Positions 2,007 to 51,231 are shown, counted from the stretch's first letter. The stretch is 64,000 nucleotides of DNA from Candidatus Flemingiibacterium sp. (GCA_045634005.1 JAZQZL010000018.1:4329-68328), one strand, 5' to 3'. Notes: generated by a model not told the origin, from the letters alone. Numbers and translations are program-made.

Positions 2007-3725
2007 ATGAACTATACCGAAAACTACAAGCGTTGGCTCTCGTCCGATAAGGTGGACGAGGCAACGAAGGAGGAGCTTCGTAAAATCGAAGGCAACGACG
2101 AAGAAATAAAGCTTCGCTTTGTAAAATACCTCGAGTTTGGCACAGCCGGACTGCGCGGAATTATGATGGCGGGAACAAACGCTATGAACGTATACACCGT
2201 AGCGCACGCAACGCAGGGCCTTGCCGACCTCATCAACAAGGAAGGTAAGGCTGACCGCGGCGTGGCTATCGCATACGATTCGCGCAATAACTCCGAGCGC
2301 TTCGCACGTCACGCAGCAAGTGTACTCGCCGCAAACGGCATCAAGGTGTATATTTTCGACTCGCTTCGCCCGACTCCCGTGCTGTCCTTTGCGGTACGCG
2401 AGCTTCACACGATCGCCGGTATCAACATCACCGCATCGCACAATCCGAAGCAGTATAACGGATATAAGGCATATTGGGAGGACGGTGCACAGCTTCCGCC
2501 CGATCACGCGGCAACCGTATCCGAGTTTGTCGCTGCAGCCGATATATTCGATGACGTTAAGGTTATGGATTTCGATGAGGGCTTAAAGAGGGGCATTATT
2601 GAATTTATCCCCGAATCGCTTGACGAAAAATACATGCAAAACGTAATCGGACAGGCAGTAAATCCCGGCGTTATCCGCGAGGTCGCAGACACGCTTGAAA
2701 TCGTTTACACTCCCCTTCACGGCGCAGGATACAAGATGATTCCCGAGGTGCTTCGTCGCGTTGGCATGAAGCATATCGACGTTGTTGACGAGCAAATGGT
2801 GCTCGACGGCAATTTTCCGACCATATCTTATCCTAATCCTGAATTTCCCGAAGCATTTGAGATTGGCATCAAGCTTGCAGAGCGCGTTCACAGTGACCTC
2901 ATTATCGCAACCGACCCCGATGCTGACCGAGTTGGCATAATGTCGCGCGACAAGACAGGCAAGTTTGCACGTCTTACCGGTAATCAGGTCGGAGCACTTT
3001 TGCTTGACTATATCATTACCGCATATGAGCAGACGGGTATGCCAAAGGATCCGTACGCGATCAAGACTATCGTTACCACCGATATCATAACAAGAATATG
3101 CGAAACGCACAACGTGAAGCTTCACAACGTGCTGACGGGATTCAAGTTCATCGGCGAGGTTATAAAGGAGCACGAGGCTTCGGGAATTGGCAGCTACATC
3201 TTCGGCTTCGAGGAAAGCTACGGCTATCTTAAGGGTACGTACGCGCGCGACAAGGACGCTGTGGTTGCGACTATGCTGCTCTGCGAAATGGCGGCATATT
3301 ACAGCACCAAGGGTATGACGCTTTGCGATGCTATGCAGGGCCTCTACGAGCGCTACGGCTACTACGATGAGGGCGTTGCCAACATCTATATGGAGGGCCT
3401 TGACGGACTTGAGCGCATGAAGGCGCTTATGGACCGTCTGCGCAACGATCCGCCGAGCGACCTTGGCGGATACAAGGTAACCGAGCGCCGCGACTATTTA
3501 AACGACACGGTGCTTGACGTCGCTACCGGTAAGATCACCTCGACGGGACTTCCCTCCACGAACGTGCTCTACTACGTCACCGAGGCAGGCGACACAGTGG
3601 TTATCCGTCCGTCCGGCACGGAGCCGAAAATTAAGATCTATATTCTCGCGCACGACGAGAGCCTCGAGGCATTACGCGAAAAGATCGCGAAGTACGCCAA
3701 GGTTACGGACACTTGGGTTAAGTAA
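2007..3725 (+). CDS. pgm: Phosphoglucomutase/phosphomannomutase
   Basis: FGTAGLRG, TASHNP, DPDADR, GFEESYG and RPSGTEPKIK motifs. Confidence 0.93.
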   Translation: MNYTENYKRWLSSDKVDEATKEELRKIEGNDEEIKLRFVKYLEFGTAGLRGIMMAGTNAMNVYTVAHATQGLADLINKEGKADRGVAIAYDSRNNSERFARHAASVLAANGIKVYIFDSLRPTPVLSFAVRELHTIAGINITASHNPKQYNGYKAYWEDGAQLPPDHAATVSEFVAAADIFDDVKVMDFDEGLKRGIIEFIPESLDEKYMQNVIGQAVNPGVIREVADTLEIVYTPLHGAGYKMIPEVLRRVGMKHIDVVDEQMVLDGNFPTISYPNPEFPEAFEIGIKLAERVHSDLIIATDPDADRVGIMSRDKTGKFARLTGNQVGALLLDYIITAYEQTGMPKDPYAIKTIVTTDIITRICETHNVKLHNVLTGFKFIGEVIKEHEASGIGSYIFGFEESYGYLKGTYARDKDAVVATMLLCEMAAYYSTKGMTLCDAMQGLYERYGYYDEGVANIYMEGLDGLERMKALMDRLRNDPPSDLGGYKVTERRDYLNDTVLDVATGKITSTGLPSTNVLYYVTEAGDTVVIRPSGTEPKIKIYILAHDESLEALREKIAKYAKVTDTWVK

Positions 3726-3728
3726 ATA

Positions 3729-3760
3729 GTTAGCCTTGAGGTGAAAACCTCAAGGCTAAC
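3729..3760 (+). terminator. Hairpin after pgm (terminator or stabiliser)
   Basis: gttagccttgaggt-gaaa-acctcaaggctaac perfect stem; poor U tail. Confidence 0.6.
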
Positions 3761-3797
3761 CGCATAAAATCATTTTTGTCAAAAACGGAGGATACAT

Positions 3798-4886
3798 ATG
3801 AAAACATTATTCGTAGGCGATATCTGCCCTACAAGCTACACCGAGGCAGCATACGCCGCTGCCGATATGGGCACGCTTTTTAACAACACCCTTTCTATAT
3901 TTGAAAACCGCGATTTCGTATTCGCAAACCTCGAGTGCGCTATCACCGAGAGCGAAAACAAGATCAAGAAGTTCGGTCCTAATCTTAAGGCGCCGAAAAA
4001 TACCGCAACCGTGCTTAAGAACCTCGGCGTAACCGTAGCGGGCATTTCCAACAACCACGTTTTCGACTTCGGCAAGGAAGGCGCTATCGACACGCTTAAG
4101 GCACTCGGCGAAGCAGGCGTTGACTACACCGGCTTTGGCGAAAACTACGCTGACTCCAAGAAGAACTATGTGTTCGAAAAGGGCAGCGAGAAGATTTGCA
4201 TCATCGCTGTATGCGAGCACGAATACTCCTACGCTCTTGAGGACCGTATGGGCTCGCGTCCCTTCGACGAGTTTGAAACTCTCGAGGACGTAAGAGCGGC
4301 AAAGGCGCAGTACGACCGCGTTATCGTTATCTACCACGGCGGCAAGGAGCAGTGCCACTATCCCTCTCCCAGACTCGTTCGCGCTTGCCGTGCGATGGCA
4401 AGAGCCGGCGCAGACCTCATTCTCGGTCAGCACAGCCATTGCATCGGTGTTTACGAGCTTTATGAGGGCACACACATTCTCTACGGTCAGGGCAACTTCC
4501 AGTTCGTAAGCACCTCCAAGTACGACAACTGGAACACCGGTCTTGCAGTTTCCTACGACACCAAGAGCGGCGAAATCGACTTCATCCCCGTTAAGCAGAA
4601 CGAACAGATGACGGGCGTTTGCCTCGTTGAAGGTGATGAGCGCACCGCGCTTCTCGCAAAGTTCAAGGCGCTTGCTGACTCCATGCAGGACGGCACATGG
4701 AAGGACGGTTGGCACGAATTCTGCCTGTCCGTTGCCGAGGGCTACCTCAACAACATCAACCGCGCGTGCCGCGACGACTCCACCGAGCGCGAAAATGCGA
4801 TCTTCGCACACAACCTCGACTGCGAGGCTCACCACGACGTAATCACCGAGCTCTTCCCCACCTATAACGCGACTAACGAAAAATAA
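3798..4886 (+). CDS. CapA/PgsA-family metallophosphoesterase
   Basis: VGDI, ANLECAI, NNHVFDFG, YHGGKE, GQHSH and YGQGNF motifs. Confidence 0.9.
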   Translation: MKTLFVGDICPTSYTEAAYAAADMGTLFNNTLSIFENRDFVFANLECAITESENKIKKFGPNLKAPKNTATVLKNLGVTVAGISNNHVFDFGKEGAIDTLKALGEAGVDYTGFGENYADSKKNYVFEKGSEKICIIAVCEHEYSYALEDRMGSRPFDEFETLEDVRAAKAQYDRVIVIYHGGKEQCHYPSPRLVRACRAMARAGADLILGQHSHCIGVYELYEGTHILYGQGNFQFVSTSKYDNWNTGLAVSYDTKSGEIDFIPVKQNEQMTGVCLVEGDERTALLAKFKALADSMQDGTWKDGWHEFCLSVAEGYLNNINRACRDDSTERENAIFAHNLDCEAHHDVITELFPTYNATNEK

Positions 4887-4892
4887 TTACAT

Positions 4893-4936
4893 AACAAAAC
4901 CGCCCCTCAAAACAAGGGGCGGTAATTTTATTTATC
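4893..4936. repeat. 44-bp direct repeat, copy 1 (contains bidirectional terminator)
   Basis: aacaaaaccgcccctcaaaacaaggggcggtaattttatttatc, identical to 5721-5764. Confidence 0.95.
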
Positions 4937-5173
4937 AGGAAATAAATCGTCCAGCTCGCATCGCAGTGCCTTTGAAATCGCCAACAAATCTATATCGGTC
5001 ACGAAACGCTTACCCGCCTCGATTCTTTGCACTGCATTTTTATCCACGTCAAGTCCGACAAGTTGAAGTCTGTCTGCCAGCTCACGTTGTGAAATACCTA
5101 TTTGTTTGCGTAGGTGCGCCACATTCGAGCCGCATATATTATTTCGCCCGTCTTTTGTTTTATTTATAAACAT
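4928..5173 (-). CDS. Small XRE-family HTH regulator
   Basis: LRKQIGISQRELADRLQ...VQRIEAGKRFVTD; ATG at 5173 after AAGGGG. Confidence 0.88.
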   Translation of the reverse strand: MFINKTKDGRNNICGSNVAHLRKQIGISQRELADRLQLVGLDVDKNAVQRIEAGKRFVTDIDLLAISKALRCELDDLFPDK

Positions 5174-5286
5174 ATTTATCCCCTTTTGACATTCAGTGCT
5201 TGACAACAAGGATATTATATGTTATAATAATCACACCGATGACATTCTGTGAATGTCAAATTAAAAATTATCCGGAGGGATTCACT

Positions 5287-5718
5287 ATGTCTAATGAAGC
5301 ACAAGCATCAACCAACCCTAACGAATCAGCTATTCATCCCAACACAAAATTCTGCAAATTTTGCGGCGCAAAAATTCCAGAAGATGCAATTATATGCACA
5401 GCTTGCGGTCGACAGGTAGAAGAAATAAAGCAAGGTCAAGCTGCCCAGCCTCAAATCGTTATCAATAATGAAAATCACAATATAAATTCTAATACCAACA
5501 CCAATACGGTTAATGCTGGTACAGTACGAGGTGTTGCTAAAAACAAGTGGGTCGCTCTCATACTTTGCATAGTATTAGGATTTTTCGGTGCCCACAAATT
5601 CTATGAGGGTAGGATAGGATCGGGAATACTTTATTTATTCACCTGCGGACTTTTCGGTATTGGTTGGATTATAGACATTCTTGCTCTCTTAGCTAAGCCT
5701 AACCCTTATTATGTTTAA
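5287..5718 (+). CDS. Zinc-ribbon + TM2 domain membrane protein
   Basis: CKFCG...CTACG ribbon; KNKWVALILCIVLGFFGAHKFYEG TM2 motif; GGAGG RBS. Confidence 0.9.
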   Translation: MSNEAQASTNPNESAIHPNTKFCKFCGAKIPEDAIICTACGRQVEEIKQGQAAQPQIVINNENHNINSNTNTNTVNAGTVRGVAKNKWVALILCIVLGFFGAHKFYEGRIGSGILYLFTCGLFGIGWIIDILALLAKPNPYYV

Positions 5719-5720: not shown

Positions 5721-5764
5721 AACAAAACCGCCCCTCAAAACAAGGGGCGGTAATTTTATTTATC
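5721..5764. repeat. 44-bp direct repeat, copy 2
   Basis: Identical to 4893-4936; includes stop codon of the 5756-5962 gene. Confidence 0.95.
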
Positions 5765-5962
5765 TGAAAGCTCGTCGGGTACTATCACTTCAGGTGGTCT
5801 TTTGGGAATACGCTTAAGCGGATCGTATATAAATTTCCGGCAGGAATACTCTTTGTGTACGACGCCGTGATGCTCACAGAGCATATCTTCAGTTGTCTGT
5901 ATCTCGGCCGAGAATCGACAAAGCTCGCAAATACGCGTTATATCGTCAGATTTTCTTTTCAT
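5756..5962 (-). CDS. Small Cys-rich hypothetical protein
   Basis: CELC...C...CRKFIYDPLKRIP; AAGGAG RBS. Confidence 0.7.
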   Translation of the reverse strand: MKRKSDDITRICELCRFSAEIQTTEDMLCEHHGVVHKEYSCRKFIYDPLKRIPKRPPEVIVPDELSDK

Positions 5963-8397: not shown

Positions 8398-8456
8398 ATA
8401 AAAAACCACCCTTTGGAGTACCTGCGATAAAGCAGATTTATAAGATATATAAAATT

Positions 8457-8492
8457 ACCGCCACGAGTGACCAAACGGTTACTCTCGGCGGT
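8457..8492. terminator. Hairpin inside left end of element A
   Basis: accgcc..gagtgacc-aaac-ggttactc..ggcggt. Confidence 0.6.
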
Positions 8493-8498
8493 TGTTCT

Positions 8499-9326
8499 TT
8501 ATCCTTTAATAAATGGCGTATTTCTGATATGCGATTGTAAACTATATGCTCCCTTATAGCCAATCTGCCTTGCCATAATGAACAGCGCGAGCAGATTATG
8601 GTTAGGACGAGAATAGAACAACATACGTTCCTCTCCGTTGATAGTGAGTTTCTGCATCCATATCACTTTTAACGTTAACAGATCATCCAAGACATTTTCC
8701 AACTGCTCTTTCTGAATCGCACAATCTCTTTCAAGAACTTCTTTTTCAAAAACATAATTCTCTGTCTTGTGATACAAGTAAATCAATGCATTCATCGTGC
8801 TTTCATGAGAAAGGGCGGCAAATATCTCCTGCAAATCCTTCTTATCGTTCAAAAAATATCCGTATCCCTCTGTCGGCTCGGGAAATACAGAAAAGAAAGG
8901 TTCTTTTCCGTTCGATACGATTGTAAATCCATTATCGTCAAGAATATAGGATGCATTTTTCTGATTCTTGATTTCATTAGGATCGTATCTTTTTCCAATC
9001 TCCATACGGCAATTAAACAAACCTCGTTCAATCTGCCAACCGATATCACGCGCGACATTGAATCGTTCCTTTGCCTCGGTATTATGGATTAGCTTTACAA
9101 TTCTTCCCGAAATATCTGCCATAGTAACCGTTTCGTTTCCGAATAGCTCGTCAAGAGACACCTCAAGCTCATTAGCAAGAGGAACAAGAAGCGCGCCGTC
9201 GGGGTACGTTTCGCTTGTTTCCCATTTTGAAACCGCTTGCGCTGATACTCCAAGCTTTGTAGCAAGCTGCTCTTGCGTCAGATTCTTGTCAAGACGCAAT
9301 CTTTTGATATTACCCGATAAACTCAT
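8499..9326 (-). CDS. XRE-family HTH regulator with C-terminal winged-helix-like region
   Basis: LTQEQLATKLGVSAQAVSKWETSETYPD. Confidence 0.88.
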   Translation of the reverse strand: MSLSGNIKRLRLDKNLTQEQLATKLGVSAQAVSKWETSETYPDGALLVPLANELEVSLDELFGNETVTMADISGRIVKLIHNTEAKERFNVARDIGWQIERGLFNCRMEIGKRYDPNEIKNQKNASYILDDNGFTIVSNGKEPFFSVFPEPTEGYGYFLNDKKDLQEIFAALSHESTMNALIYLYHKTENYVFEKEVLERDCAIQKEQLENVLDDLLTLKVIWMQKLTINGEERMLFYSRPNHNLLALFIMARQIGYKGAYSLQSHIRNTPFIKG

Positions 9327-9327
9327 C

Positions 9328-10200
9328 TTATTTACCTCCGATCATCTTGCATCTTCCGTTGAAGTTGTATTCATAGGACTGTCTGCCGCACATTCTTTCA
9401 AATGCCAAGGAAATTAAGGACAGAACAAGACCGTCGCCGTGGCATTCGTACACCTTGACATCTCCTTCGGCAAGATGCGCTGTTACCCAATGGCATGCTC
9501 CTACAGAACAGAATTCATCGAGAATTTCGGAAACTCGTTCTTCTTTTACTCCTGTATTCTTTGCAATATAGTCTGCCGTGAAACTTTCAGAGCAAGCGGT
9601 GGAATGAACATAATAAAGAACGGACAAAGCATCTTCACTCGACAAGAACTTGAAGATTTTAACGATTTCTTTTTTCTTATTCGAATCGTTCATCCATGCA
9701 AAATCAGCTTTGTTGCGGAGCATCATTACCGCCACGTTTACATTTTCGGAGCTTGCTACAAACTCAAAAAACTCATGAAGCGATATGTTAGAACGATAAA
9801 AATGCGATATCTCAGACGGAAAAACGTTTTCCCTATCATAAACATCATCACTATATTTAGAAACCGTTCCATACATAGCCGGAATAAGCGCTTTTACCGC
9901 TTCAAATGCTTTTAGCACAGATTCGCGGCGATCAAGCCCTTCAAACAAAGAGCGGATTTCTTCCGTCGTGCTTTGCTTTTTGTCCTCGGAAAGTCCGAGA
10001 AGCGTGTCGGTGGTGACACCATAATATTTTGCGAGTTCTACCACCATAGGAAGATCAGGCGTTGAAGCCCCATTTTCCCATTTGGGAACCGTTTTATTTG
10101 AAATAGATAGGCTTTGTGCCACATCTTCTTGTGTTACTCCCTTTGAAGTGCGGAGCTCCACCAATTTTTCTGCGATCTTACATTCGTACATATTTTTCAC
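9328..10200 (-). CDS. XRE-family HTH regulator, paralogue-like partner of the adjacent gene
   Basis: VTQEDVAQSLSISNKTVPKWENGASTPDL; stop lies 1 nt before the next start. Confidence 0.88.
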   Translation of the reverse strand: MKNMYECKIAEKLVELRTSKGVTQEDVAQSLSISNKTVPKWENGASTPDLPMVVELAKYYGVTTDTLLGLSEDKKQSTTEEIRSLFEGLDRRESVLKAFEAVKALIPAMYGTVSKYSDDVYDRENVFPSEISHFYRSNISLHEFFEFVASSENVNVAVMMLRNKADFAWMNDSNKKKEIVKIFKFLSSEDALSVLYYVHSTACSESFTADYIAKNTGVKEERVSEILDEFCSVGACHWVTAHLAEGDVKVYECHGDGLVLSLISLAFERMCGRQSYEYNFNGRCKMIGGK

Positions 10201-10401
10201 CTCTCGAAAAATTCAAGTTCCGGAGCTTGTGACTATATTATACACAAAACCAACGGTAGAGTCAACAGAGTGATATTTTATTATTTCTCCATTTCGGAGA
10301 ACAGAATATACAGCAATCAACCAATCGTAGTAAATAGCTTTTGTGTCCACAAAAGCAGTGCTTGTCAGGAAAAGAAGACGGACTGTCGGAACGCACAAAC
10401 C

Positions 10402-10527
10402 AAAGGCTCCCTTGTGCAAAGGGAGCTGTCACCAAAGGTGACTGAGGGATTGTTTTACGGTATAATTTTGCTTTTTACAATCTCTCCGTCTTGCTACGCA
10501 AGCCCCCCCCTTTACACAAGGGAGGCT
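10402..10527. repeat. Gene-less copy of the DUF559-flanking palindromic repeat pair
   Basis: aaaggctcccttgtgcaaagggagctgtc...tgagggattgt / acaatctctccgtc...ccctttacacaagggaggct. Confidence 0.88.
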
Positions 10528-10550
10528 CTTGACCATTACCGCCCGACAGT

Positions 10551-10595
10551 ACACCTAAAAGGTGTAACACATTATACCGTGCGCGCAAGCGTGTG
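10551..10595 (-). other. Putative MobV-type oriT
   Basis: ggtgtaacacattataccgtgcgcgcaagcgtgtg aligns with 52428-52464; minus strand TAATGTGTTA is one mismatch from the pMV158-family nic TAGTGTG/TTA. Confidence 0.7.
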
Positions 10596-10634
10596 AAAAG
10601 GAGTACGAACAAATTTGTTCGTACTCCTTTTGTC

Positions 10635-10710
10635 GTAGGGCGGGGCCTTGCTCCCGCCGGTTTATTAAATTCATGTTGATTGTAACGGCGGCACCAAGGC
10701 ACCGCCCTAC
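10635..10710. repeat. GTAG-type REP doublet (REPIN-like)
   Basis: GTAGGGCGGGGCCTTGCTCCCGCCG ... CGGCGGCACCAAGGCACCGCCCTAC (inverted). Confidence 0.8.
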
Positions 10711-10769
10711 AAGATTTCAGCAGGTAAAACCTGCTTTATGGAAGACACCCCTTCGGGTGGCTTTTTTAA

Positions 10770-11078
10770 TCAAAGAAGCGCCGCGATCTGATCTTTTCTG
10801 ATAAATCCGAGTGACTTATTTGTCATCTCACCGTTTTTGAATACCATTACGGTCGGGATGCTCATAATTCCAAACTGACGCGCCAGATCTTCCTCTTCGT
10901 CGACGTTCACCTTGCCGACCTTTACCTTGCCCTCGTTTTCCTCGGCGAACTTTGCAAGCTCGGGAGCGAGCATACGGCACGGACCGCACCAAGCCGCCCA
11001 GAAATCAACGACTACGGGAAGCTCCGACTTTAATACTTCTTCTTCAAAATTTGCTTTTGTGATAACTATTTCAGCCAT
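10770..11078 (-). CDS. trxA: Thioredoxin
   Basis: DFWAAWCGPC and IMSIPT motifs. Confidence 0.96.
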   Translation of the reverse strand: MAEIVITKANFEEEVLKSELPVVVDFWAAWCGPCRMLAPELAKFAEENEGKVKVGKVNVDEEEDLARQFGIMSIPTVMVFKNGEMTNKSLGFIRKDQIAALL

Positions 11079-11090
11079 TTTGAACCCTCC

Positions 11091-12740
11091 TTATATTTTA
11101 AAATATTGCTTACCAACGTTGTCAGACAAAAGCACCGCATCTACAGTTGCAAATGCAAGTGCGCCGTGTCCTTCCTCGAGGATACCGCTCTTGTCAAACA
11201 CCTTTTTAACAGTATCGTTCATAGCACAGAAAATTATACGTTTTCCGTCCTTGGCAAATTCGTCTGCCATTTCTCCGAGCGTTTCGACGGAGGTTATATC
11301 GATATCGGGAACCTCGCGGAACGATACGATAACCTCATCAAATGCGGAAAGCTCGCCGATCTTTACGGATAACTTACCGATATTGCCGAAGAATACGTCG
11401 CCAGTCACGTAAACTACAACTGCATTTCCGTGGCCCTCACCAAGCTTACCGCGTGCTGCAAGACGCTTCTCATCTACGTCAGACACGGTAACACCGAGAT
11501 GTGCCGCATTCTTTACAAACACCATAAGCGAGAAGATTATTCCGATAACTATCGCTATAGTGAGGTCGAATACAACGGTCGCGATCATAGTAATAAGGAA
11601 CTGAAGGATCGCTCCGACAAACTTCTTTTTAAATATGTACTTGATCGCGTGCCACTCATTCATACGCCACGCGGTAACCATAAGCACGCCTGCAAGTGCG
11701 GGCATAGGTACAAGCGCCATAACGTCGCCGAGAAGGAACATAGCCGCGAGAAGCCACACTGCGTGGAAAATACCGGTAAGACGAGTCTGTGCACCGGACT
11801 TTATAGCAACGCTTGTACGCGCGATAGCCGCAGTAGCAGGTACACCTCCGAAAAAAGGCATAAGCACGTTACCGATACCCTGACCGATAAGCTCGATGTT
11901 AGCGTCAAACGGCTCATTCTTCATTCTCGATGCAGATGCACCGCAAAGAAGGCTCTCGATCATACCGAGTGCCGCAACGGTAATGGCAGGTGAAATAAGC
12001 TTGCTTATCATATCCGTGCTGAATCCGTCAAAGGAAATACGGTCAGCAAGGAAGAGCGTTTTCGGAATCTCACCTACAGTTGCAACCCCGTCAAAACGGA
12101 AGATAACGTATACCACCGTAGCAACGATGATACCGATAAGCGAGGACGGAACCTTCGCATTCCACTTTTTTGGCCAGATTATCATAATTGCAACAACAAT
12201 AAGGCCAAGTAAAACCGACCAGAGATGCGGATTGAAGCCAAGCTCGCCATAAGAGATAAGCTTTGCTATGGCACCCTCACCCTCGGACGTAGTACCGAAG
12301 AAGTTGTCCACCTGACCGAGCGCGATTATGACCGCGATACCCGATGTAAAACCGGTGATAACGGGTCGCGGAATAAGCTTAACAAGACCGCCGAGCTTGA
12401 ATATGCCGCAAAGCAGCAGCAGAGCTCCTGCAATAAGACAAACCCAGAATACGCCGTTAAGACCGACCGTCGATGCAATTCCAATAAGCACCGCACTCAT
12501 AGCACCCGTAGGGCCGGATATCTGGAAGGATGCGCCAGAAAGAGCACTTATAACGATACCTGCGATTATCGCTGTAACAAGCCCCGATGCCGCAGTAGCG
12601 CCGCTCGCGACACCGAATGCAAGCGCAAGCGGAAGTGCAACAGCCGCAACCGTAAGGCCTGCAAGCAGGTCTTTAATAAGCTTCGAGCCGTTATATCCTG
12701 AAAATTCAGAACGAAGCATTTTTGCAAAATTCTTTATCAT
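11091..12740 (-). CDS. SulP-family anion transporter with STAS domain
   Basis: DLLAGLTVAAVALPLALAFG, QISGPTGA, ELIGQGIGN and FFGN motifs. Confidence 0.93.
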   Translation of the reverse strand: MIKNFAKMLRSEFSGYNGSKLIKDLLAGLTVAAVALPLALAFGVASGATAASGLVTAIIAGIVISALSGASFQISGPTGAMSAVLIGIASTVGLNGVFWVCLIAGALLLLCGIFKLGGLVKLIPRPVITGFTSGIAVIIALGQVDNFFGTTSEGEGAIAKLISYGELGFNPHLWSVLLGLIVVAIMIIWPKKWNAKVPSSLIGIIVATVVYVIFRFDGVATVGEIPKTLFLADRISFDGFSTDMISKLISPAITVAALGMIESLLCGASASRMKNEPFDANIELIGQGIGNVLMPFFGGVPATAAIARTSVAIKSGAQTRLTGIFHAVWLLAAMFLLGDVMALVPMPALAGVLMVTAWRMNEWHAIKYIFKKKFVGAILQFLITMIATVVFDLTIAIVIGIIFSLMVFVKNAAHLGVTVSDVDEKRLAARGKLGEGHGNAVVVYVTGDVFFGNIGKLSVKIGELSAFDEVIVSFREVPDIDITSVETLGEMADEFAKDGKRIIFCAMNDTVKKVFDKSGILEEGHGALAFATVDAVLLSDNVGKQYFKI

Positions 12741-12798
12741 TGGTCACACCTCAATTAAACGTTATAATGCGCCGATCTTGCAATCGGCGCATTTTTTA

Positions 12799-13869
12799 TT
12801 AGTCAACTTTAACGGTCCAGCCGAGAGTGTCGGGCTGCTTGCCCCACTGAATGCCGGTAAGGTTATCGTAAAGCTTCTGTGCGATGGTGCCGATCTCATT
12901 GTTATTGATGATCATCTTTTCGCCGCCGTTGTTAAGCTCGCCGATAGGGCTGATTACGGCTGCGGTACCGGTACCGAATGCTTCGTTAAGCTTGCCTGCC
13001 TTGTAAGCGTCTACTACCTCGTCGATGGAAAGACGGCGCTCGGTTACCTTGTAGCCCCAGTTCTTAAGAAGCTCGATGCAGGACATACGGGTAACGCCGG
13101 GAAGGATAGATCCTGCCTCGGTGGTAGGGGTGATTACCTCGCCGTCGATGACGAAGAATACGTTCATCGCGCCAACCTCATCGATGTACTTGTGCTCGAT
13201 ACCGTCAAGCCAGAGAACCTGCGCATAGCCGAGCTGCTCAGCCTTCTTCTGACCGATAAGCGAAGCCGCGTAGTTACCGCCGCACTTGGTGAAGCCCGTA
13301 CCGCCCTTGACAGCGCGAACGTACTCGTTTTCAACGAATATCTTAACGGGATTGATACCTGCAGCATAGTAAGAGCCAACGGGCGAGAGAATAATTGCAA
13401 AGAGATAATTTTTTGCAACGTGTACGCCAAGATGCACGTCAGTTGCGATGATAAACGGACGGATGTAGAGCGAGGTGCCGTCCTTTACGGGTACCCAATC
13501 CTTATCAACGTTGATAAGTGTCTTAAGAGCCTCGATGCAGTCATCAATGTCAACGTGAGGAATGCACATACGGTCGTTGGTACGGTTCATACGCTCAAAG
13601 TTCTTGTCAGGACGGAAGAGCTGAATCTCACCGGTAGGAGTGCGATATGCCTTAAGACCCTCAAAGATTTCCTGTGCATAGTGGAACACCATGGTAGCAG
13701 GGTCAAGTTCAAAGGGAGCATAGGGTACTATGCGAGCATCGTACCAACCCTTACCCTCGGTGTAATTCATCAAAAACATATGATCGGAGAAGAAGTTTCC
13801 GAAGCCAAGCTTGTCCCAATCAGGCTTTGCCTTGGGAGTAGTAGTTCTTTCAATTCTGATATCTATCAT
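12799..13869 (-). CDS. ilvE: Branched-chain amino acid aminotransferase
   Basis: HYAQEIFEGLKAY, YIRP, KCGGNY, ILPGVTR and GTAAVI motifs. Confidence 0.96.
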   Translation of the reverse strand: MIDIRIERTTTPKAKPDWDKLGFGNFFSDHMFLMNYTEGKGWYDARIVPYAPFELDPATMVFHYAQEIFEGLKAYRTPTGEIQLFRPDKNFERMNRTNDRMCIPHVDIDDCIEALKTLINVDKDWVPVKDGTSLYIRPFIIATDVHLGVHVAKNYLFAIILSPVGSYYAAGINPVKIFVENEYVRAVKGGTGFTKCGGNYAASLIGQKKAEQLGYAQVLWLDGIEHKYIDEVGAMNVFFVIDGEVITPTTEAGSILPGVTRMSCIELLKNWGYKVTERRLSIDEVVDAYKAGKLNEAFGTGTAAVISPIGELNNGGEKMIINNNEIGTIAQKLYDNLTGIQWGKQPDTLGWTVKVD

Positions 13870-14055
13870 TGTTATATCCTCCAAAATATATTACATTAAA
13901 AATATTATACACCTATATAACTGCTTTTGCAATATACTAAAGTGAATAAATTTAAAAAATTTTTTCTCTACTTTCGTACAAAATCGCATAAAGGTGCGTC
14001 TATGGGCAAAAATAGGTGCGTAGAACGCCAGACTTTAATTATTTCGGAGGTAAAA

Positions 14056-15348
14056 ATGAATAACAGCAACAATAGAAAAAATTTCGCTCGGATACTGTGT
14101 GCGCTGCTCGGCGCGCTCGTAATCATTGGCATCGCTGTACCCGTCAGCGCAAAAAGCTCACTCTCTCCCGCGCTTGACATTATAGCAGCCGAGTTCACTA
14201 TGGCTAAAAGCGGGCTTGTCGGCACGGGCATTTATTTCGAAAAGGAGGATTTCGCCGCGGCTCTCGGAATTGAGAACGTAGGGAAAATAACTATCGCTTC
14301 CCTTCCGGACGCCAGCCTCGGACGGCTTCAGCTCGGCTCACGGTACGTCGAGGTCGGTCAGACCATCTCCGAGCGCAACCTTGACTCGCTCAAATTCGTA
14401 CAGTACGGAAGCGGAGAGGTTGAAGCCTCGTTTAAATTTACCCGTGGCTCGGACATATACGGCACAGCGTACGAATGCGCGCTTTACACGCTCACAAGCG
14501 TCAACACCGCACCGGTAATTGAAACGGGTGCAAATGCCGCCAAGGGCGCGGCAACAGCCTACACTGGCATAGCTTATCTCGGCGCGCTCAGCGCTACTGA
14601 CCGCGAGGACGATTCACTCACGTTTGAAGTAATAAAAGCGCCCTCGAACGGTACTGTAAAGCTCACGGATAAAGCTCGCGGCTACTATGAATACACCTCA
14701 AACGACAAATTTGTCGGTGGCGACAGCTTCACAGTACGCGTAACCGATAAATACGGCAACCGCTCAACTGACACCAAGATAAGCGTTCGCGTTGAAAAGG
14801 TAAGCGAGAGCGAGGTGTACGCGGATATGAACGGACACTGGGCAAACTCTGCCGTAATTTCCTGTATTAAAGCCGGAGTTATCAGCGCGGCGCAAACGGG
14901 CGACAAGTTCTACCCCGACGCGTATATCAGCCGCGCGGAGTTCCTCGCACTTGCAATGAGTGCGGCAGGATATACGGGCTTTTCGACAAGCAATACAGGC
15001 TTTGAGGACGACGACGAAATACCGACAGATTACAAAGGCTATATAGCCGCCGCAAAGGCATTCGGAATTATCGACGGTATAGAAACCGACACCGGCCTCC
15101 GCTTCTATCCAAGCAACCAGATAACGCGCTGTGAGGCGGCAGTAATACTTTCACGCCTTACGGGTATCACGGGCGGCGCGGTGTCTGTATTCGCAAATGA
15201 AGCGATACCTGCGTGGGCAGAGGGAGCTATGGTCGGCCTCTATAACGCCGGCATACTTCGCGGTATGGGTGACGGCACGCTGGGTGCATACACGCCCATA
15301 ACAAGGGGAGCTGCAGCACAGCTCGTTTCGGGTATAATCGGCAGATAA
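14056..15348 (+). CDS. Secreted S-layer-homology protein with cadherin/Big-like domain
   Basis: Signal peptide; NTAP...ATDREDDSLTF...GGDSFTVRVTD; SLH motifs ISRAEF, ITRCEA, ITRGAA. Confidence 0.88.
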   Translation: MNNSNNRKNFARILCALLGALVIIGIAVPVSAKSSLSPALDIIAAEFTMAKSGLVGTGIYFEKEDFAAALGIENVGKITIASLPDASLGRLQLGSRYVEVGQTISERNLDSLKFVQYGSGEVEASFKFTRGSDIYGTAYECALYTLTSVNTAPVIETGANAAKGAATAYTGIAYLGALSATDREDDSLTFEVIKAPSNGTVKLTDKARGYYEYTSNDKFVGGDSFTVRVTDKYGNRSTDTKISVRVEKVSESEVYADMNGHWANSAVISCIKAGVISAAQTGDKFYPDAYISRAEFLALAMSAAGYTGFSTSNTGFEDDDEIPTDYKGYIAAAKAFGIIDGIETDTGLRFYPSNQITRCEAAVILSRLTGITGGAVSVFANEAIPAWAEGAMVGLYNAGILRGMGDGTLGAYTPITRGAAAQLVSGIIGR

Positions 15349-15355
15349 AAAATTT

Positions 15356-15379
15356 GAGGTGCACCGCTCGGTGCACCTC
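15356..15379. terminator. Bidirectional terminator between convergent genes
   Basis: gaggtgcaccg-ct-cggtgcacctc flanked by A/T tracts. Confidence 0.75.
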
Positions 15380-15386
15380 GTTTGTT

Positions 15387-16490
15387 TTATTTGATTTTTA
15401 TCGGGAGCTCAACTGTAAGTACAGTTTCTTCGCCATCAACATTCATAATAACCGTGGCCACTGCGGTGTATTTTCCGCTTGGTAGTCCGTTCATCTCCGA
15501 AAGTTCAGCAGCGAAGGTATCGGTGTACTTCACAGATTTACCAGCCTCGATAACGGCACTGTCCGAATAGGTAGACAGATTCGGTATAATATTCGCACCG
15601 GCTGCGGCAATCAGATCTATATCGCAGATGTATTCGGCTGTGACGTCAGTTTTGTTTGCGTTTTGAAGTGTAGCCGTAAGCGAAAGCGGCGCCTCAGGAT
15701 TGGCGTCAGCAAGCTTGTACGTACCGCGCTCGGATTTAAGCGTAAGCTTATATCCGTCCTGTGTGACCGACCGAGAGGTAGGCTGGGTTGGGATAAAGAG
15801 CGAATAATATCCTACGACAAGCATCGCAGCTATGATGAAGAATACCACGAGCATCACGATATGCCGTTTCGAAAGTATCGGCTTCACGTTTGTTTTAGGA
15901 ATAAAGCCAAGCTTCATAACGATCGGCACCATAGCGCCCATAAACATCACAAGAAGGAAGGCTTCCGCAGGAAACAGCGCGAGATTTTTCATTACACGCG
16001 GTATGGTCATAAACGCGTAGCTCTTTCCGTAAAAGATGTCGTAATACCACATCATAAGCGTGGGATTGATGATGAGATTGGTTATAGCTACAACCGAGAA
16101 TCGCGACAGTATAACGCGCGTTGCAGTCATATTTGAACGCCACAAAAAGAGCGCGAACAAAAGCGATCCGGATATCTCCTCAAATATGAAGGGAAAGAAA
16201 TACGCACCCTGCGGGAAGATAAGACATCCGAGCGTATCGCTTATCGCCGCCGCCACCATGGCTACCACCGGTCCGAATATCGACGCGCCAAGGGCGTTAA
16301 CAAAAAAGCCGACTGTGATGTTAAGGCTCGGTCCGACTGGAATCTGCACGGATTTCAGTGCAACTCTCACCGCAATAAGTATAGCCGCAATGCAAAGCAT
16401 ACGAATGTCGAAAAGCTGCATTGCAGCATCACGCCAATATGCGCACGAGAATGGATGCTTGTAGATAGGCTCGTTTCGTAAATCCTTCAT
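15387..16490 (-). CDS. folT: Folate ECF transporter S component with C-terminal extension
   Basis: FGPVVAMVAAAISDTLG..FPQGAYFFPF and PRVMKN motifs; THF riboswitch upstream. Confidence 0.85.
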   Translation of the reverse strand: MKDLRNEPIYKHPFSCAYWRDAAMQLFDIRMLCIAAILIAVRVALKSVQIPVGPSLNITVGFFVNALGASIFGPVVAMVAAAISDTLGCLIFPQGAYFFPFIFEEISGSLLFALFLWRSNMTATRVILSRFSVVAITNLIINPTLMMWYYDIFYGKSYAFMTIPRVMKNLALFPAEAFLLVMFMGAMVPIVMKLGFIPKTNVKPILSKRHIVMLVVFFIIAAMLVVGYYSLFIPTQPTSRSVTQDGYKLTLKSERGTYKLADANPEAPLSLTATLQNANKTDVTAEYICDIDLIAAAGANIIPNLSTYSDSAVIEAGKSVKYTDTFAAELSEMNGLPSGKYTAVATVIMNVDGEETVLTVELPIKIK

Positions 16491-16556
16491 AAAATAAAAA
16501 TACCTCCTTATAATGACATTCCGTATTGCCACATATAGGAGATATCTCCGTTATGT

Positions 16557-16655
16557 AACAGCGGGATGCGACCTTAGCACCGCAGATAAACATCTTTCGT
16601 TCCCAAGACAACTCCCCGTTCATGGGACACTTTACGCGCTATGATCTACTCTGTA
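16557..16655 (-). promoter_or_regulatory. THF riboswitch
   Basis: ACAGAGTAGA..GCGTAAAGTG..GAACGGGGAGTTG..AACGAAAG..CTGCGGT..CGCATCCCGCTGT matches the THF aptamer pattern; upstream of folT. Confidence 0.9.
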
Positions 16656-16824
16656 TTTGTTGTACCTCACAGTACAATACTATGATAACACATTATAAGA
16701 CAAAAATCAAGTGGAATTTAAGCAATAATATGAGACAATAACTCGCGCTTTCTGTGCAGTTTAACGCTATTTTAACACCAAAAAGCACCGTCTAAAAAAA
16801 GCAAAATATTTTTTCAAAAACCTA

Positions 16825-16853
16825 TTGACAAACGTGTCTGCTTGTGATATAAT
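16825..16853 (+). promoter_or_regulatory. Sigma-A promoter for tRNA-Met/Glu
   Basis: TTGACA-17 nt-TATAAT with extended TG. Confidence 0.88.
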
Positions 16854-16894
16854 ATTTAGGCATCGTGGTTGTAAAACGTTCACGAATGACATAT

Positions 16895-16971
16895 GGCGGA
16901 GTAGCTCAGTTGGCTAGAGCAACCGGTTCATACCCGGTAGGTCATGGGTTCAAGTCCAATCTCCGCTACCA
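16895..16971 (+). tRNA. tRNA-Met (CAU, elongator type)
   Basis: GGCGGAGTAGCTCAG...TTCATAC...CTCCGCTACCA. Confidence 0.93.
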
Positions 16972-16999
16972 TTTTTTCTCGGCCAATAGGTCGGGATAC

Positions 17000-17074
17000 G
17001 GCCCGTTGGTCAAGCGGTTAAGACACGGCCCTTTCACGGCTGTAACATGGGTTCGATTCCCGTACGGGTCACCA
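17000..17074 (+). tRNA. tRNA-Glu (UUC)
   Basis: GGCCCGTTGGTCAAGCGGTTAAGAC...CTTTCAC...GGGTCACCA. Confidence 0.96.
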
Positions 17075-17213
17075 AATAAAAAATCCACCCTTTATGGGTG
17101 GTTTTTTATTTGCTTATCTGTTTCGCAGAATCGAACCCTTCGAATTGCCGCTAAACAAACGGTTATCCGCCCGAGTATGCAATTCGTGCCGCCGCGAAGC
17201 TGCGGCAGGCGAT

Positions 17214-17239
17214 TTCCCGTACGGGTCACCAAATAAAAA
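17214..17239 (+). repeat. Duplicated 3' end of tRNA-Glu (26 bp)
   Basis: ttcccgtacgggtcaccaaataaaaa identical to 17057-17082. Confidence 0.92.
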
Positions 17240-17392
17240 CCATCCCTTGGCGTACCTGCGATAAAGCAGTATTTTACTTCTTCTTGATGTAAAGTACTGC
17301 TTTATCTTTTCAACAATGAATTGATAATTGTTTTTTGAGAAATGTATGCTATAATATAATTACACCGGTGATAAACTTTTTGGAGGTACAAT

Positions 17393-18499
17393 ATGAACAT
17401 TAAAATAGGTGCGATTATCAAAAAACTTCGCGCAGAAAATAATATTACACAAGACACACTTGCTACTGCCATAGGGGTAACACCTCAAGCGATATCTCGC
17501 TGGGAGTCTGAAGGCGGGTATCCCGATATAGAACTTCTTCCCGCTTTGGCGGACTTTTTCTCGGTCAGCACTGATGAACTTCTCGGATACAAAATATCGG
17601 AAAGAGAACAAGAGCTTGCAAACATCAAAAAAGAATTGCGCCGTTTGGCAGAAGTGGGAACGCATCAAGAAAAGCTTTCTTTCGCCCGAGATGCGTTTGT
17701 TAAATTTCCGAACGATTGCAAAATCAAAGTTTATCTTGCTGCCTGTTTGTCGGACGAATGGAGAATTACACACGAGGAATCACTGATTCATGAATCCGAA
17801 ACCCTCTGTTTATCGGTAATTGATGACTGCCGTGATGAAGATATACGTTATGAAGCAATTTTTACTTTAAGCAGCATATATAACGAATTGGGAGAAATAA
17901 AAAAAGCGAGAAGCACATTAGAATTGCTCTCGCCCATGAAGTACTGCCGTGAAACGGCTCTCGCTTGCGGAATTGGTGATGGAAATACAGAATTCTATAT
18001 TCAAGATGAAATTGATAAACTTACCGACAGCTTGGGATTGTCCATTCACAATCTTGTACTGCATGAAGATTTACCGGGCGATCCCTCTACTTGGGATAAA
18101 AAAATTGAAATGCTTACTATTTCCAATCGTCTTTATGAGACGATATATGGGGACAATCTTATGTTTTATCACACTCGCCTCTCCCGAAATTATTGGTTGA
18201 TCTCTACCTATAAGATTGCACAAACCAAAACGGAAGAAGCCATTGAAATTCTTGAAAAAATGTGTTATCACGCCATTGAATACGATAAAGCGTATATCAA
18301 TGATCATGGCAAATTTTTCACATCAATTCTTGTCGATAAATTGATTTATCCTGAACCAAACAAAGATTTTCACGAGTGCACGGAGCATACGGAATGCTAT
18401 CATATTCTCAAAAAAATGCAGCATCCTCGATATGATTGCATTCGTCAGGATCCTCGTTTCATTTCAATTATTGAAAAATTGAATCAGTATACAAAATAA
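17393..18499 (+). CDS. XRE-family HTH regulator with helical (TPR-like) C-terminus
   Basis: ITQDTLATAIGVTPQAISRWESEGGYPDIELLPALADFF. Confidence 0.88.
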   Translation: MNIKIGAIIKKLRAENNITQDTLATAIGVTPQAISRWESEGGYPDIELLPALADFFSVSTDELLGYKISEREQELANIKKELRRLAEVGTHQEKLSFARDAFVKFPNDCKIKVYLAACLSDEWRITHEESLIHESETLCLSVIDDCRDEDIRYEAIFTLSSIYNELGEIKKARSTLELLSPMKYCRETALACGIGDGNTEFYIQDEIDKLTDSLGLSIHNLVLHEDLPGDPSTWDKKIEMLTISNRLYETIYGDNLMFYHTRLSRNYWLISTYKIAQTKTEEAIEILEKMCYHAIEYDKAYINDHGKFFTSILVDKLIYPEPNKDFHECTEHTECYHILKKMQHPRYDCIRQDPRFISIIEKLNQYTK

Positions 18500-18529
18500 G
18501 TTATTCAGCCCCGCCTTGCGCGGGGCTTT

Positions 18530-18898
18530 GCTTTTGTGCCCACAAAAGCAGTGCTTGTCAGGAAAAATAGATGGGCTTTCGAGATGCACAAAGCAAAGGC
18601 TCCCTTGTGTAAAGGGAACTGTCGCAAAGCGACTGAGGGATTGTTTTACGATGACTTTTTGTTTTTACAATCTCTCCGTCACGGCAAGCCGTGCCACCTC
18701 CCTTTACACAAGGGAGGCTCTTTACTGCCCGACAGTACACCTGTAAGATATAACACACTATACCTTGCAGGGCAAGTAGTGTGAAAAGGAGTACGGACAT
18801 TTGTGCGTACTCCTTTTGTGTAGGGCGGGGATTTATCTCCCGCCGCTTTATTTGATTTAAACCGTTCGTAACGGCGGCACCAAGGCACCGCCCTACAA
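18530..18898. repeat. ~370-bp non-coding module shared with 10337-10712 (palindromic pair 18595-18719; REP doublet 18820-18896)
   Basis: Collinear similarity to the element A module. Confidence 0.92.
18737..18783 (-). other. Putative MobV-type oriT
   Basis: taacacactataccttgc (18751-18768) identical to 52432-52449; minus strand TAGTGTGTTA. Confidence 0.78.
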
Positions 18899-18996
18899 TG
18901 TTTCGGAAAGTCAATCTGCTCTATCGCAGGTACCCCTTGTGGATGGTTTTTTGTTTTGTGTATCTGTTTCGTCGAATCGAACCCCTCGAATTGCCG

Positions 18997-20088
18997 CTAT
19001 TCCCCCATCATCTCGCGCCGTTTCTTCCGTCTTACACGGTTGATATGCCGCTCGAAGTCGCCGCTGTTTATAAGTCGAGCTAAAACGAGCTGTACGTACG
19101 TTGGGACCGTACAGGAGTAAAATCCAAGCTTCTTTTCAAATTCCGCCGTAATACCCTTCGGTAAAACCATATACGCCGTACGAAACGACGTGGAAACAGT
19201 CTTTGAAAAGGTGTTCATATAAATGACGTTATCACTGTCCGTGTGCGTGAACAACGTTTCTTCAGGCTTTTTGGATACCGAAAACTCCGACTCAAAGTCG
19301 TCCTCTATGATATATCTGCCCGATATACTCGCCCAGCGCAGATACTCGTGCCGCTTCGACGCACTTGCCGATACGCCGCTCGGGAAGCTTCTGTACGGCG
19401 ATATATGCAAAACATCGGCATGGGTACTTTGAAGCGCCGAGCTCTCTATGCCGTCGTTGCCGAGCAAAAGCATTTCAAGCGGCACGTCGGCGGCGCGGTA
19501 GACCGCTTCGATCTTCTTATACGACGGCGACTCTATCGCGTACACACACTCACGTCCGAAAAATTCAACTATAAGGCTGTAAAGATACTCCGAGCCAGAG
19601 CCTATGATTATCTGCCCGTGCTCTGCAAAAACGCCGCGGCTTCGCGCAAGATAGTGGCATATCGCCTCGCGAAGCTCATACGCACCAAAGCTCGGCGATC
19701 TATCAAGTATCCCCTCGCCGTAATCGTTCATAACGGCGCGCATAGCCTTTGAGAGCACAGAAAACGGAAACTGCTCTGACTGTACGCCCTCACTTTTTGC
19801 TGTGCGGCGAGTATACTCCACCGCCGACGGGCTTGCAAATCCGTCATCCATCCGAAAGATAACGAAATATCCGCTTCGCTCGCGCGGCTCAATATAGCCC
19901 TCGTCGCAGAGCAGCGCGTACGCGTGCTCTGCCGTAACTACGCTAACGCCCGTTTCCTCGCACAGCATACGCTTCGAGGGGAGCTTCGCACCGTACGGAT
20001 ACATGCCACCAACAATATCCGCACGAAGCTGACGGTATAGCTGCAGATATGCCGCAACGCTTGAATTTTTGTCTATCGAATATTTCAT
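18997..20088 (-). CDS. MocR/GabR-family (GntR wHTH + aminotransferase-like) regulator, likely PdxR-type
   Basis: KLPSKRML..VSVVTAEHAY..L..EGYI; IIEDDFESEF; TFSKT; divergent from pdxK. Confidence 0.88.
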   Translation of the reverse strand: MKYSIDKNSSVAAYLQLYRQLRADIVGGMYPYGAKLPSKRMLCEETGVSVVTAEHAYALLCDEGYIEPRERSGYFVIFRMDDGFASPSAVEYTRRTAKSEGVQSEQFPFSVLSKAMRAVMNDYGEGILDRSPSFGAYELREAICHYLARSRGVFAEHGQIIIGSGSEYLYSLIVEFFGRECVYAIESPSYKKIEAVYRAADVPLEMLLLGNDGIESSALQSTHADVLHISPYRSFPSGVSASASKRHEYLRWASISGRYIIEDDFESEFSVSKKPEETLFTHTDSDNVIYMNTFSKTVSTSFRTAYMVLPKGITAEFEKKLGFYSCTVPTYVQLVLARLINSGDFERHINRVRRKKRREMMGE

Positions 20089-48624: not shown

Positions 48625-48725
48625 ACAAAAATCACCTGCGTCATAGAGTCGTACTCTAAAGGACAGTTTTCAAAAATACGGTATATCTCGAAAAAGGTAT
48701 GCCGTATTTTGCATTTGGGGACACA

Positions 48726-48775
48726 AATGCAGTGCTTCGTATGCCTTAATTAAAGACATACGAAGCACTGCATTA
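48726..48775. terminator. Long hairpin downstream of recombinase gene
   Basis: aatgcagtgcttcgtatg...catacgaagcactgcatt. Confidence 0.7.
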
Positions 48776-48788
48776 TTTTTATATTCAG

Positions 48789-50405: not shown

Positions 50406-50508
50406 ATGAGTTCCTCCTTCGTGACTCGAAACAATCCAATGGTACAATACTTGCTTACACTCGTATTATACCATAGATTGCTCTCGGATTCCATAACTTT
50501 TTGTAAAT

Positions 50509-50757: not shown

Positions 50758-50760
50758 CCA

Positions 50761-51048: not shown

Positions 51049-51231
51049 TGTTTTTTCTCCTATTTTCATAAAGCTTTTGAAGCAAGGCGTTTTTTGCTCA
51101 AAAAGGCTCGGTCAAGAGCGTTGGAAAATGCGAATTTTCCAATAGAAAGTGCCTTTTTGATGTGGGATACGATTTAAGGCGTCAGAAACAGAAAAATCTG
51201 TTTTTTCACGGTCAAGACCGTATCCCCGGTT

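Follow-up and report, generated by a model that had tools for sequence, protein, structure and literature searches.

Integrative mobilizable elements of the Tn4451/Tn4453 kind encode a large serine recombinase (LSR; TnpX) and a MobV relaxase (TnpZ) and carry an RS_A/oriT site (oriT, origin of transfer). A single LSR suffices for integration and excision in elements of the Tn4451 type, and TnpX recombines at 2-bp identities without a recombination directionality factor (PMC5704250). In cis-mobilizable elements (CIMEs), attL and attR are retained and the genes of integration and transfer are gone (PMC5704250). The iOriT islands (10.64898/2026.01.13.699239) as well as MTnSag1/tISCpe8 (1.7–2.0 kb) possess an oriT, have no relaxase or mating-pore genes and hitch on helpers. 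Here we describe two small elements, El1 and El2, found in a stretch of 64,000 nucleotides (the window; coordinates below are window positions), which corresponds to contig C18:4329–68328 of the metagenome-assembled genome (MAG) G000 of Candidatus Flemingiibacterium sp. (2.18 Mb, 89 contigs, 88% complete). With a probability of about 0.7, both belong to a widespread group of miniature non-autonomous integrative elements, on which a serine recombinase would act in trans and which would carry a borrowed oriT.

El1/El2-like elements are named here type A, and the other arm type, that of the LSR element resident in the window, type B. Genomes compared are denoted by G-numbers, contigs by C-numbers and loci by L-numbers. 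The comparison sets were 32 genomes of the genus, 401 genomes of the order and 80 metagenome MobV loci. The arm census counts exact 18-mer matches with one genome per species.

Organization of El1 and El2

El1 (8413–10753, plus strand, ~2.34 kb including both flanking TT) and El2 (17247–18938, plus strand, 1.69 kb including both TT) are bounded by inverted arms. The 18-mer GTACCTGCGATAAAGCAG is present exactly at 8418–8435 and 17252–17269, within the left arms of El1 (8415–8436, plus strand; GGA, the 18-mer and A) and El2 (17249–17270, plus strand), and as an inverted copy with one mismatch at 18916–18933. The latter belongs to the right arm of El2, which is thus of the inverted left-arm type (17/18; 18915–18938 with TT, plus strand). 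The right arm of El1 (10730–10751) is a degenerate inverted copy with 14/18 identity to the 18-mer; its sequence, CCTGCTTTATGGAAGACACCCC followed by TT (10730–10753, plus strand), represents the common right-arm type of the family. The inverted arms match each other at 16–17 of 22 positions. Three matches to the 18-mer in the window compare with 0.03 expected, and none of 100 shuffles reached three. The TT pairs (8413–8414 and 10752–10753 for El1, 17247–17248 and 18937–18938 for El2) lie each 3 nt from the arm as delimited by the 18-mer.

Only three sizeable open reading frames (ORFs) are present in the two elements, each of them matching HTH_3 and nothing else. El1 carries two XRE-family regulators of 275 aa (8499–9326, minus strand, E 3.8e-15) and 290 aa (9328–10200, minus strand, E 3.1e-12), and El2 carries one XRE helix-turn-helix (HTH) regulator of 368 aa (17393–18499, plus strand, E 3.5e-14) with a helical C-terminal part, whose likeness to tetratricopeptide repeats (TPR) is a lead only. 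The two-gene cargo of El1 also occurs in G036, there without arms. The neighbouring genes are of the housekeeping type: El1 is flanked by genes of a DtxR-type repressor and thioredoxin, El2 by tRNA-Met/tRNA-Glu on one side and a GntR-aminotransferase gene on the other. Being att-flanked and having no recombination or transfer genes, both elements agree in this respect with CIMEs. The sequence-only reading of the window had correctly described the common 18-bp left arm, the inverted right arms, their 3-nt distance from a duplicated TT and the XRE regulators as the only genes; it missed a defining feature, namely that both elements split a terminator hairpin.

Insertion into terminator loops

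Each element interrupts a hairpin that carries an A-run and a T-run, with one half on either side: AAAAAACCACCC-TT(El1)TT-CGGGTGGCTTTTTT and AAAAACCATCCC-TT(El2)TT-GTGGATGGTTTTTT. The left half of the host terminator split by El1 (AAAAAACCACCCT, 8400–8412) has its partner at 10754–10767, and the rejoined site folds with TT at the loop centre. Precise empty sites, the search for which had been proposed along with the first description, are found in relatives. The El1 site is empty in the congeneric G016 and G024, where the homologous hairpin is intact (G008 has a different terminator at this site, likewise uninterrupted), and the El2 site is empty in G024, again with an intact hairpin.

The 3' end of tRNA-Glu, the terminator and ~50 nt are partly duplicated next to El2 (17056–17108 versus 17213–17247 plus 18939–18999). 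The first of the duplicated terminators (17075–17108) is intact and the second holds El2. The same duplication is present in G024 without El2; it may be a scar of an older tRNA-targeting element.

The position of the TT could be examined across the family in complete elements, for which the right-hand TT was required by the search pattern; the figures for complete elements and arm occurrences given in this text (42, 41, 38 and 121) refer to the matches listed. When the sites of 41 complete elements were rebuilt, the centre of TT was ≤1.5 nt away from the centre of the loop of an A-run/T-run hairpin in 33, and the flanks of the remaining 8 do not pair. On the left side, 39 of these 41 have TT as the dinucleotide. 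Among the 121 exact-arm occurrences TT stands at the fixed offset in 98, and in 90 it is accompanied by an upstream A-run. That the elements insert precisely into bidirectional intrinsic terminators, in the middle of the dyad, is well supported by comparison. Three further candidates (C48:15742, L041 and L106) were rejected as elements, as they are arm-like hairpins serving as plain terminators.

Family size, cargo and spread

The exact 18-mer arm was found in at least 120 stretches, nearly all from gut MAGs of Clostridia, Oscillospiraceae or Eubacteriales. It occurs patchily, in 12 of the 32 genus genomes and in 23 of the 401 order genomes, the latter belonging to 8/30 families and 17/178 genera. 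The 42 complete elements are 359–3029 bp long, so that the size range of 1.7–2.3 kb suggested by the two copies in the window has to be widened to 0.36–3 kb. G000 itself contains at least three further copies (C39:1605–3215; one split over the contig ends of C55 and C80; C51:31438 to the contig end) as well as decayed ones, e.g. C80:27318–28640. L117, L097 and L070 have a longer cargo behind the left arm, and their right end was not found in the respective genomes; these loci may be decayed or larger members.

The cargo is variable. In 20 of 38 complete elements it falls into one BLAST cluster of 200–380-aa proteins, whose representative matches HTH_3, and more XRE-like N-termini can be seen by eye among the rest. 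Other elements carry AraC, MerR, LytTR with a membrane protein, a xylose-isomerase-like TIM barrel or proteins without assignment. None of the 38 complete elements has a recombinase- or relaxase-like ORF, and tblastn searches of the 120 listed loci, with the MobV protein and three LSRs as queries, gave no match. We also considered the cargo as a hidden recombinase and rejected this idea, the cargo being variable and without a catalytic recombinase domain. Further copies with exchangeable cargo and without either enzyme had been expected from El1 and El2, and the family bears this out.

A 1560-bp member is 99.2–99.4% identical in three genomes, which represent three species, and is inserted there into three different terminators. 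An El1-like copy with 86% identity is inserted at yet another terminator in G027, which belongs to a different family, and a copy of El2 with 85% identity lies elsewhere in G016. Judging from these comparisons, it is well supported that the elements are mobile and non-autonomous and that they have moved recently between species. The arm and the right-end module had no match in viral contigs, PLSDB plasmids or INPHARED phages.

Right-end module and oriT-like site

The right ends of El1 (10337–10753, plus strand) and El2 (18530–18938, plus strand) share a module with 88% mean column identity. The sequence-only reading had it as a common non-coding unit of ~370 bp; it is indeed shared, but it is composite, as two nested repeats within it also occur alone elsewhere. 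The first one is a palindromic repeat of ~125 bp (10402–10530 in El1, 18595–18722 in El2) from an independent repeat family, with solo copies on contigs C82, C87, C12, C59, C31, C79, C66, C14 and C36 of G000, often at contig ends. The second one (~75 bp, TAGGGCGG...CCGCCCTA; 10636–10712 and 18820–18897) has pieces matching C5 and C52 of G000. The copy in G027 has a shorter module devoid of both repeats. The constant core comprises the oriT-like stretch, the right arm and two hairpins, one of them small and the other with runs of A and T; according to the sequence and the family comparison, the latter hairpin (10596–10631 in El1) is terminator-like and conserved in the family.

At 59593–60063 of the window, inverted ends of the palindromic repeat flank a 137-aa DUF559 ORF. 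Since the same inverted ends bracket this ORF, the short ~125-bp repeat appears to have arisen from a small DUF559 unit by deletion.

The oriT-like sites are located on the minus strand at 10536–10597 in El1 (15-mer core at 10564–10578, one mismatch) and at 18722–18783 in El2 (core at 18750–18764, one mismatch). A 40-nt stretch of each (10558–10597 and 18744–18783) matches positions 52425–52464 upstream of the MobV gene (80% in the case of El2), i.e. the oriT of the resident MobV element (minus strand, 15-mer core at 52431–52445), the same motif being found upstream of mob elsewhere. Of the 42 complete elements, 22 contain the 15-mer GTAACACACTATACC without mismatch and 33 with at most one. 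The motif is separated from the right end by ~96–98 nt, or by ~156–178 nt where the second repeat is present. On the minus strand, the sequence is GCAAGG-TATAGTGTG/TTA(C/T)AC, with an inverted repeat just upstream, which can be compared with the nick region of pMV158, 5'-TGTG/TTATAC-3', where IR1 ends 8 nt upstream of the nick (PMC5863519). The predicted nick positions on the minus strand, 10568/10567 in El1 and 18754/18753 in El2, are derived from this nick region. Among the 80 metagenome loci of MobV relatives, of which 68 have at least 300 nt upstream, 34 contain the 15-mer at ≤400 nt upstream of mob, where by our own arithmetic ~1.4 matches are expected by chance. The stretch therefore has what is expected of a MOBV oriT, namely a pMV158-like nick region with an inverted repeat and a position just upstream of mobV in relatives. 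Its identity as a putative oriT is convincing by sequence and synteny, in agreement with the match to the site beside the MobV relaxase that had been noticed at first sight.

The resident LSR and MobV element

An integrative mobilizable element of 12.1 kb (48643–60774) has the same build as type A, and other arms (AGAGTCGTACTCTAAAGGACAGTTTT; inverted repeat of 28 nt, 86% complementary). It is of the Tn4451/Tn4453 kind and has inverted arms of 26–28 nt, a 2-bp core and a terminator loop as target; the terminator is intact in G024 and G008. It encodes an LSR of 552 aa (48789–50447, minus strand; Resolvase, Recombinase, Zn_ribbon_recom and DUF4368 domains) and a MobV relaxase (51232–52245, minus strand; open frame of 338 aa, Mob_Pre E 2.8e-48, profile positions 4–196). 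The first ATG/GTG/TTG of the MobV frame gives only 272 aa (start at 52050). By eye, the type-A and type-B arms share a distal motif, TAAAG..CAG..TTTT. This element was considered as the obvious cognate helper of El1 and El2 and was rejected as such, because its arms differ from those of type A and no type-A arm within four mismatches is present nearby.

The cargo of the 12.1-kb element lies in a low-GC stretch and is defence-like overall, with GmrSD-like (53260–54324), Schlafen/AlbA_2 plus HATPase_c_4 (54946–56229), DUF4062 (58052–58798) and methyltransferase (60036–60641) genes and several unassigned ones. Small elements with type-B arms are also present in G000 at C87:1263–2970, C82 ~2700–4090 and from C25:8812 onward. 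XRE regulators are the cargo on C87 and C82 and a DeoR-like gene on C25, and the C87 copy splits its terminator at a TA.

Candidate recombinase for the type-A arms

The two junctions of the element El3 share only C-TT. Junction identity as short as CTT excludes the 6–8-bp overlap of tyrosine recombinases, and a 2-bp crossover fits. The ~22-bp imperfect inverted half-sites around a 2-bp TT, of which the right TT is set by the search pattern, have the organization of LSR attachment sites, and terminal inverted repeats (TIRs) of 21 bp are typical of LSR elements in gut Clostridia according to PMC12904643. The LSRs with DUF4368 form a multi-targeting clade, for which one example with a TT core and A/T-enriched flanks is given in PMC10083194.

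A pairing of the arm with an LSR gene was found in G156. On its contig C3 an arm GGCGCACCTGCGATAAAGCAGG (21/22) lies ~190 nt past the stop codon of a gene for a 590-aa LSR with Resolvase, Recombinase, Zn_ribbon and DUF4368 domains, which is 35% identical to the LSR of the window. The downstream ends of 20 loci with homologues of this LSR (42–68% identity) were compared by eye. Three of them (G156, G174 and G036) have CCTGCT[CT]TATCGCAGGTG arms followed by TT, TT and GA, respectively, and a T-run. In seven others there are CTGT[TC]TTAT..GC.CCC arms, which resemble the right arm of the family, CCTGCTTTATGGAAGGCACCCC; TT and a T-run come next in most of them. Another terminal hairpin is present in 4/20 and something else in 6/20. 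The G036 locus (L286, contig C44; LSR 68% identical to that of G156) shows downstream of the stop codon a hairpin GGTGTACCTGC-TCTATC-GCAGGTGCACC, bracketed by complementary GC-rich ACGCCC ... GGGCGT and a T-run, with the dinucleotide GA in place of TT.

Several observations weigh against the reading that type A is moved in trans by such an LSR and transferred from a borrowed oriT. The constancy of the right TT is partly by construction, because TT belonged to the search pattern. The pairing of arm and LSR occurs in only one (G156) of the 22 arm-bearing order genomes. Only one end of the G156 element could be located, as the contig stops before the other, so that it is no more than a candidate bounded element, and the locus has neither a MobV gene nor an oriT, which means that no single known element supplies both functions. 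Homologues of the G156 LSR in G000 are distant, with at most 42% identity, and the arms on contig C18 of G000 share the contig only with the type-B LSR, 30–40 kb away. None of the 17 type-A arms found in the genus outside G000 is on a contig with an LSR, and in G050, which has 12 arm-like sites, a search for homologues of the G156 LSR gave none at E<=1e-100. A TraG-D_C coupling protein was not found in G000 (88% complete). No circle or tandem junction is present in 319 loci and G000, and one metagenome scan of low power for the circle junction pattern gave none.

Other searches are to be set beside these. The LSR loci of G000 on C23, C85 and C57 have no type-A arm, and type-B arms are present on C85; 30 LSR loci of the genus that were read have arms of neither type. 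The 80 metagenome MobV loci have no type-A arms, and the LSRs there are ~40% identical to that of the window and have other ends. The Logan contigs of four runs (contigs only, shares <=0.19) contained no excision or circle joint, a result that is uninformative either way. One Logan joint, from 17269 to 18530 with 11 other letters between, resembles a cargo-less relative and carries no evidential weight.

Taken together, type A probably depends on a serine recombinase supplied in trans, as judged from the arms, the crossover and the G156 locus. The proposal that El1 and El2 are satellites borrowing their enzymes in trans is strengthened by the empty sites, the further copies, the G156 LSR beside the arm and the oriT motif; it is weakened by the other arms of the resident LSR and by the lack of a close G156-LSR homologue in G000. 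An LSR element with the same arms, which the sequence-only reading had suggested to look for, was obtained in part, as a 21/22 arm beside the G156 LSR gene and the same arm type beside its homologues in G174 and G036; no second end was found. The circle junctions that it had predicted did not turn up in the searches named above, which have low power.

Alternative explanations

The explanation that survives best beside the preferred one, although unlikely, is that both G000 copies are dead relics, i.e. deletion remnants of LSR plus MobV elements that are now immobile and are maintained or spread only by descent or homologous recombination. It would account for the missing cognate LSR in G000, the degenerate right arm of El1, decayed copies such as the one on C80 and the failure to find circles. 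Descent by deletion is also hinted at by a hairpin motif of 29 nt with which the module begins and which resembles a sequence beside the resident LSR gene. However, the family has moved recently, as follows from the nearly identical copies at different sites in three species, strong conservation of its arms and oriT core is seen even where the cargo differs widely, and the arms of El2 are near-perfect. Moreover, a helper may have escaped assembly, as G000 is 88% complete and its contigs break at repeats. The sequence-only reading had named as signs of fixed relics that relatives always carry the segments in place with no precise empty site, and that no other copies or LSR element with the same arms exist; as far as testable here, none of its refuting outcomes held.

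Less probable still is that type A comprises derivatives of a DDE transposon (e.g. IS30- or IS630-like) similar to miniature inverted-repeat transposable elements (MITEs), with ~22-bp TIRs, a 2-bp target duplication and palindromic targets. The inverted repeats of 16–17/22 with a flanking duplicated dinucleotide agree with it, and IS30-family elements do make 2–3-bp duplications and prefer palindromic hot spots. But DDE elements commonly end in TG...CA, and the type-A termini are GG...CC. No parent insertion sequence, that is, no DDE transposase between these termini, was found among the 120 listed loci, G000 (88% complete) has no rve-domain gene, and the same arm stands beside the G156 LSR gene, with similar arms beside its homologues.

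Least probable of all is single-strand movement by an HUH enzyme (IS200/IS605-type TnpA or a relaxase) that would cut TT in the loops of terminator hairpins and recognise terminal hairpins: the left end does fold as GGCGTACCTGC-GATAAA-GCAGGTGCGCC, another hairpin, GCAGGT-AAA-ACCTGC, lies subterminally on the right, the target TT is within a hairpin loop and a relaxase-type site is on board, but the ends are inverted copies, unlike the same-strand ends of IS200/IS605, and no Y1_Tnp gene was found in G000 (88% complete), which also separates type A from IS200/IS605-derived palindrome-associated transposable elements, while TT lies at the dyad centre and not at a fixed side of the loop, an LSR adjoins the arm in G156, and the oriT is ~100–180 nt inside the element and not at the junction.

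Proposed mechanism and significance

The preferred reading, mobile elements served in trans by a serine recombinase, can be put as follows. A type-A element consists of ~22-bp imperfect inverted arms abutting a TT crossover, a cargo slot (usually with one HTH regulator) and a right-end module with a putative MobV-type oriT. An LSR of the DUF4368 type ("multi-targeting", TnpX/TndX-like) would insert and excise it in trans, reading the arms as attP half-sites and the terminator, built as A-run/stem/TT/stem/T-run, as attB. The excised circle would then be nicked at oriT by a MobV relaxase from an element like the resident 12.1-kb one and exported via the mating pore of a third party. Both G000 copies may at present be stranded, because no cognate recombinase was found in G000.

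A more far-reaching version is possible but doubtful. In it, type A would be a distinct class with att and oriT only, parasitising the LSR, the MobV relaxase and the mating pore of others; terminator loops would serve as safe harbours, the end hairpins would rebuild terminators and make insertion nearly neutral, and the over-represented XRE/TPR-type regulators would be an active payload manipulating helpers or host, so that the element would act as a vehicle spreading single transcription factors among gut Clostridia.

If the preferred reading is correct, two cis sites and one gene would suffice for an integrative element to spread between species, at a size below the lower limit given for integrative hitchers. 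Multi-targeting DUF4368 LSRs would also obtain a simple structural target rule, namely a TT in the middle of the dyad of terminators with an A-run and a T-run, which is relevant to genome-insertion tools, and single transcription regulators would be traded horizontally in gut Clostridia on dedicated mini-vehicles. Elements of this kind are invisible to finders based on integrase or relaxase genes.

Other features of the window

Two 49-nt hairpin-containing repeats (4893–4941 and 5721–5769; 96% identical, 828 nt apart) flank a 172-aa ORF (5200–5718) in a low-GC patch beside tRNA-His and tRNA-Arg. An ordinary tetrahydrofolate riboswitch (16557–16655, minus strand, 87 bits) lies upstream of a gene for an S-component of the energy-coupling factor type (15387–16532). 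Tandem paralogous genes of 325 aa are located at 46463–47440 and 47647–48624, with repeated segments (89–177 nt) of 72–80% DNA identity.

Comparison with known systems

Type A shares with Tn4451/Tn4453 the inverted arms around a 2-bp crossover, the MobV-type oriT and the low target specificity. In contrast to these transposons, El1 and El2 have neither recombinase nor relaxase, their family measures 0.36–3 kb, the core is TT (that of Tn4451 is GA) and the targets are terminator loops. Another parallel is provided by the ccr-less SCC-like elements of staphylococci (pseudo-SCC, ACME; SCC, staphylococcal cassette chromosome), which are att-bounded, have no recombinase and are moved by CcrAB in trans. 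They occupy the single site orfX/rlmH, are tens of kb long and are not known to carry an oriT, whereas type A is miniature and multi-copy. According to their description, CIMEs are decayed, occur singly at a specific site and are moved in cis after accretion with an incoming element; type A is multi-copy and multi-site, occurs in several families and has conserved ends and an oriT. Accretion of the CIME type is not apparent, as there is no tandem in the 319 loci and G000, and the target terminators are many and different.

As with iOriT islands and relaxase-less integrative mobilizable elements, the oriT-like site is present and relaxase and pore genes are absent in El1 and El2, and MTnSag1 is of similar size (PMC5704250). 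The iOriT islands and MTnSag1/tISCpe8 keep their own integrase or DDE transposase, and type A is without a recombinase too. In the text of 10.64898/2026.01.13.699239, integrative iOriT elements are always >4 kb with one 2-kb exception, an integrase is near in 92%, and serine recombinases make up <1%. The candidate helper has the DUF4368 architecture of the multi-targeting LSRs of Durrant et al. 2022, one of which is reported with a TT core and A/T-enriched flanks; the text of that paper (PMC10083194) mentions neither terminators nor recombinase-less passengers. We found no description of the family in the literature. Its novelty could be affected by the supplementary target motifs of that paper and by the element tables in the Faecalibacterium and IME_Rho_tet papers. 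Type A is apparently undescribed, and what sets it apart from these closest known kinds is that it is without both enzymes and yet miniature, multi-copy and multi-site.

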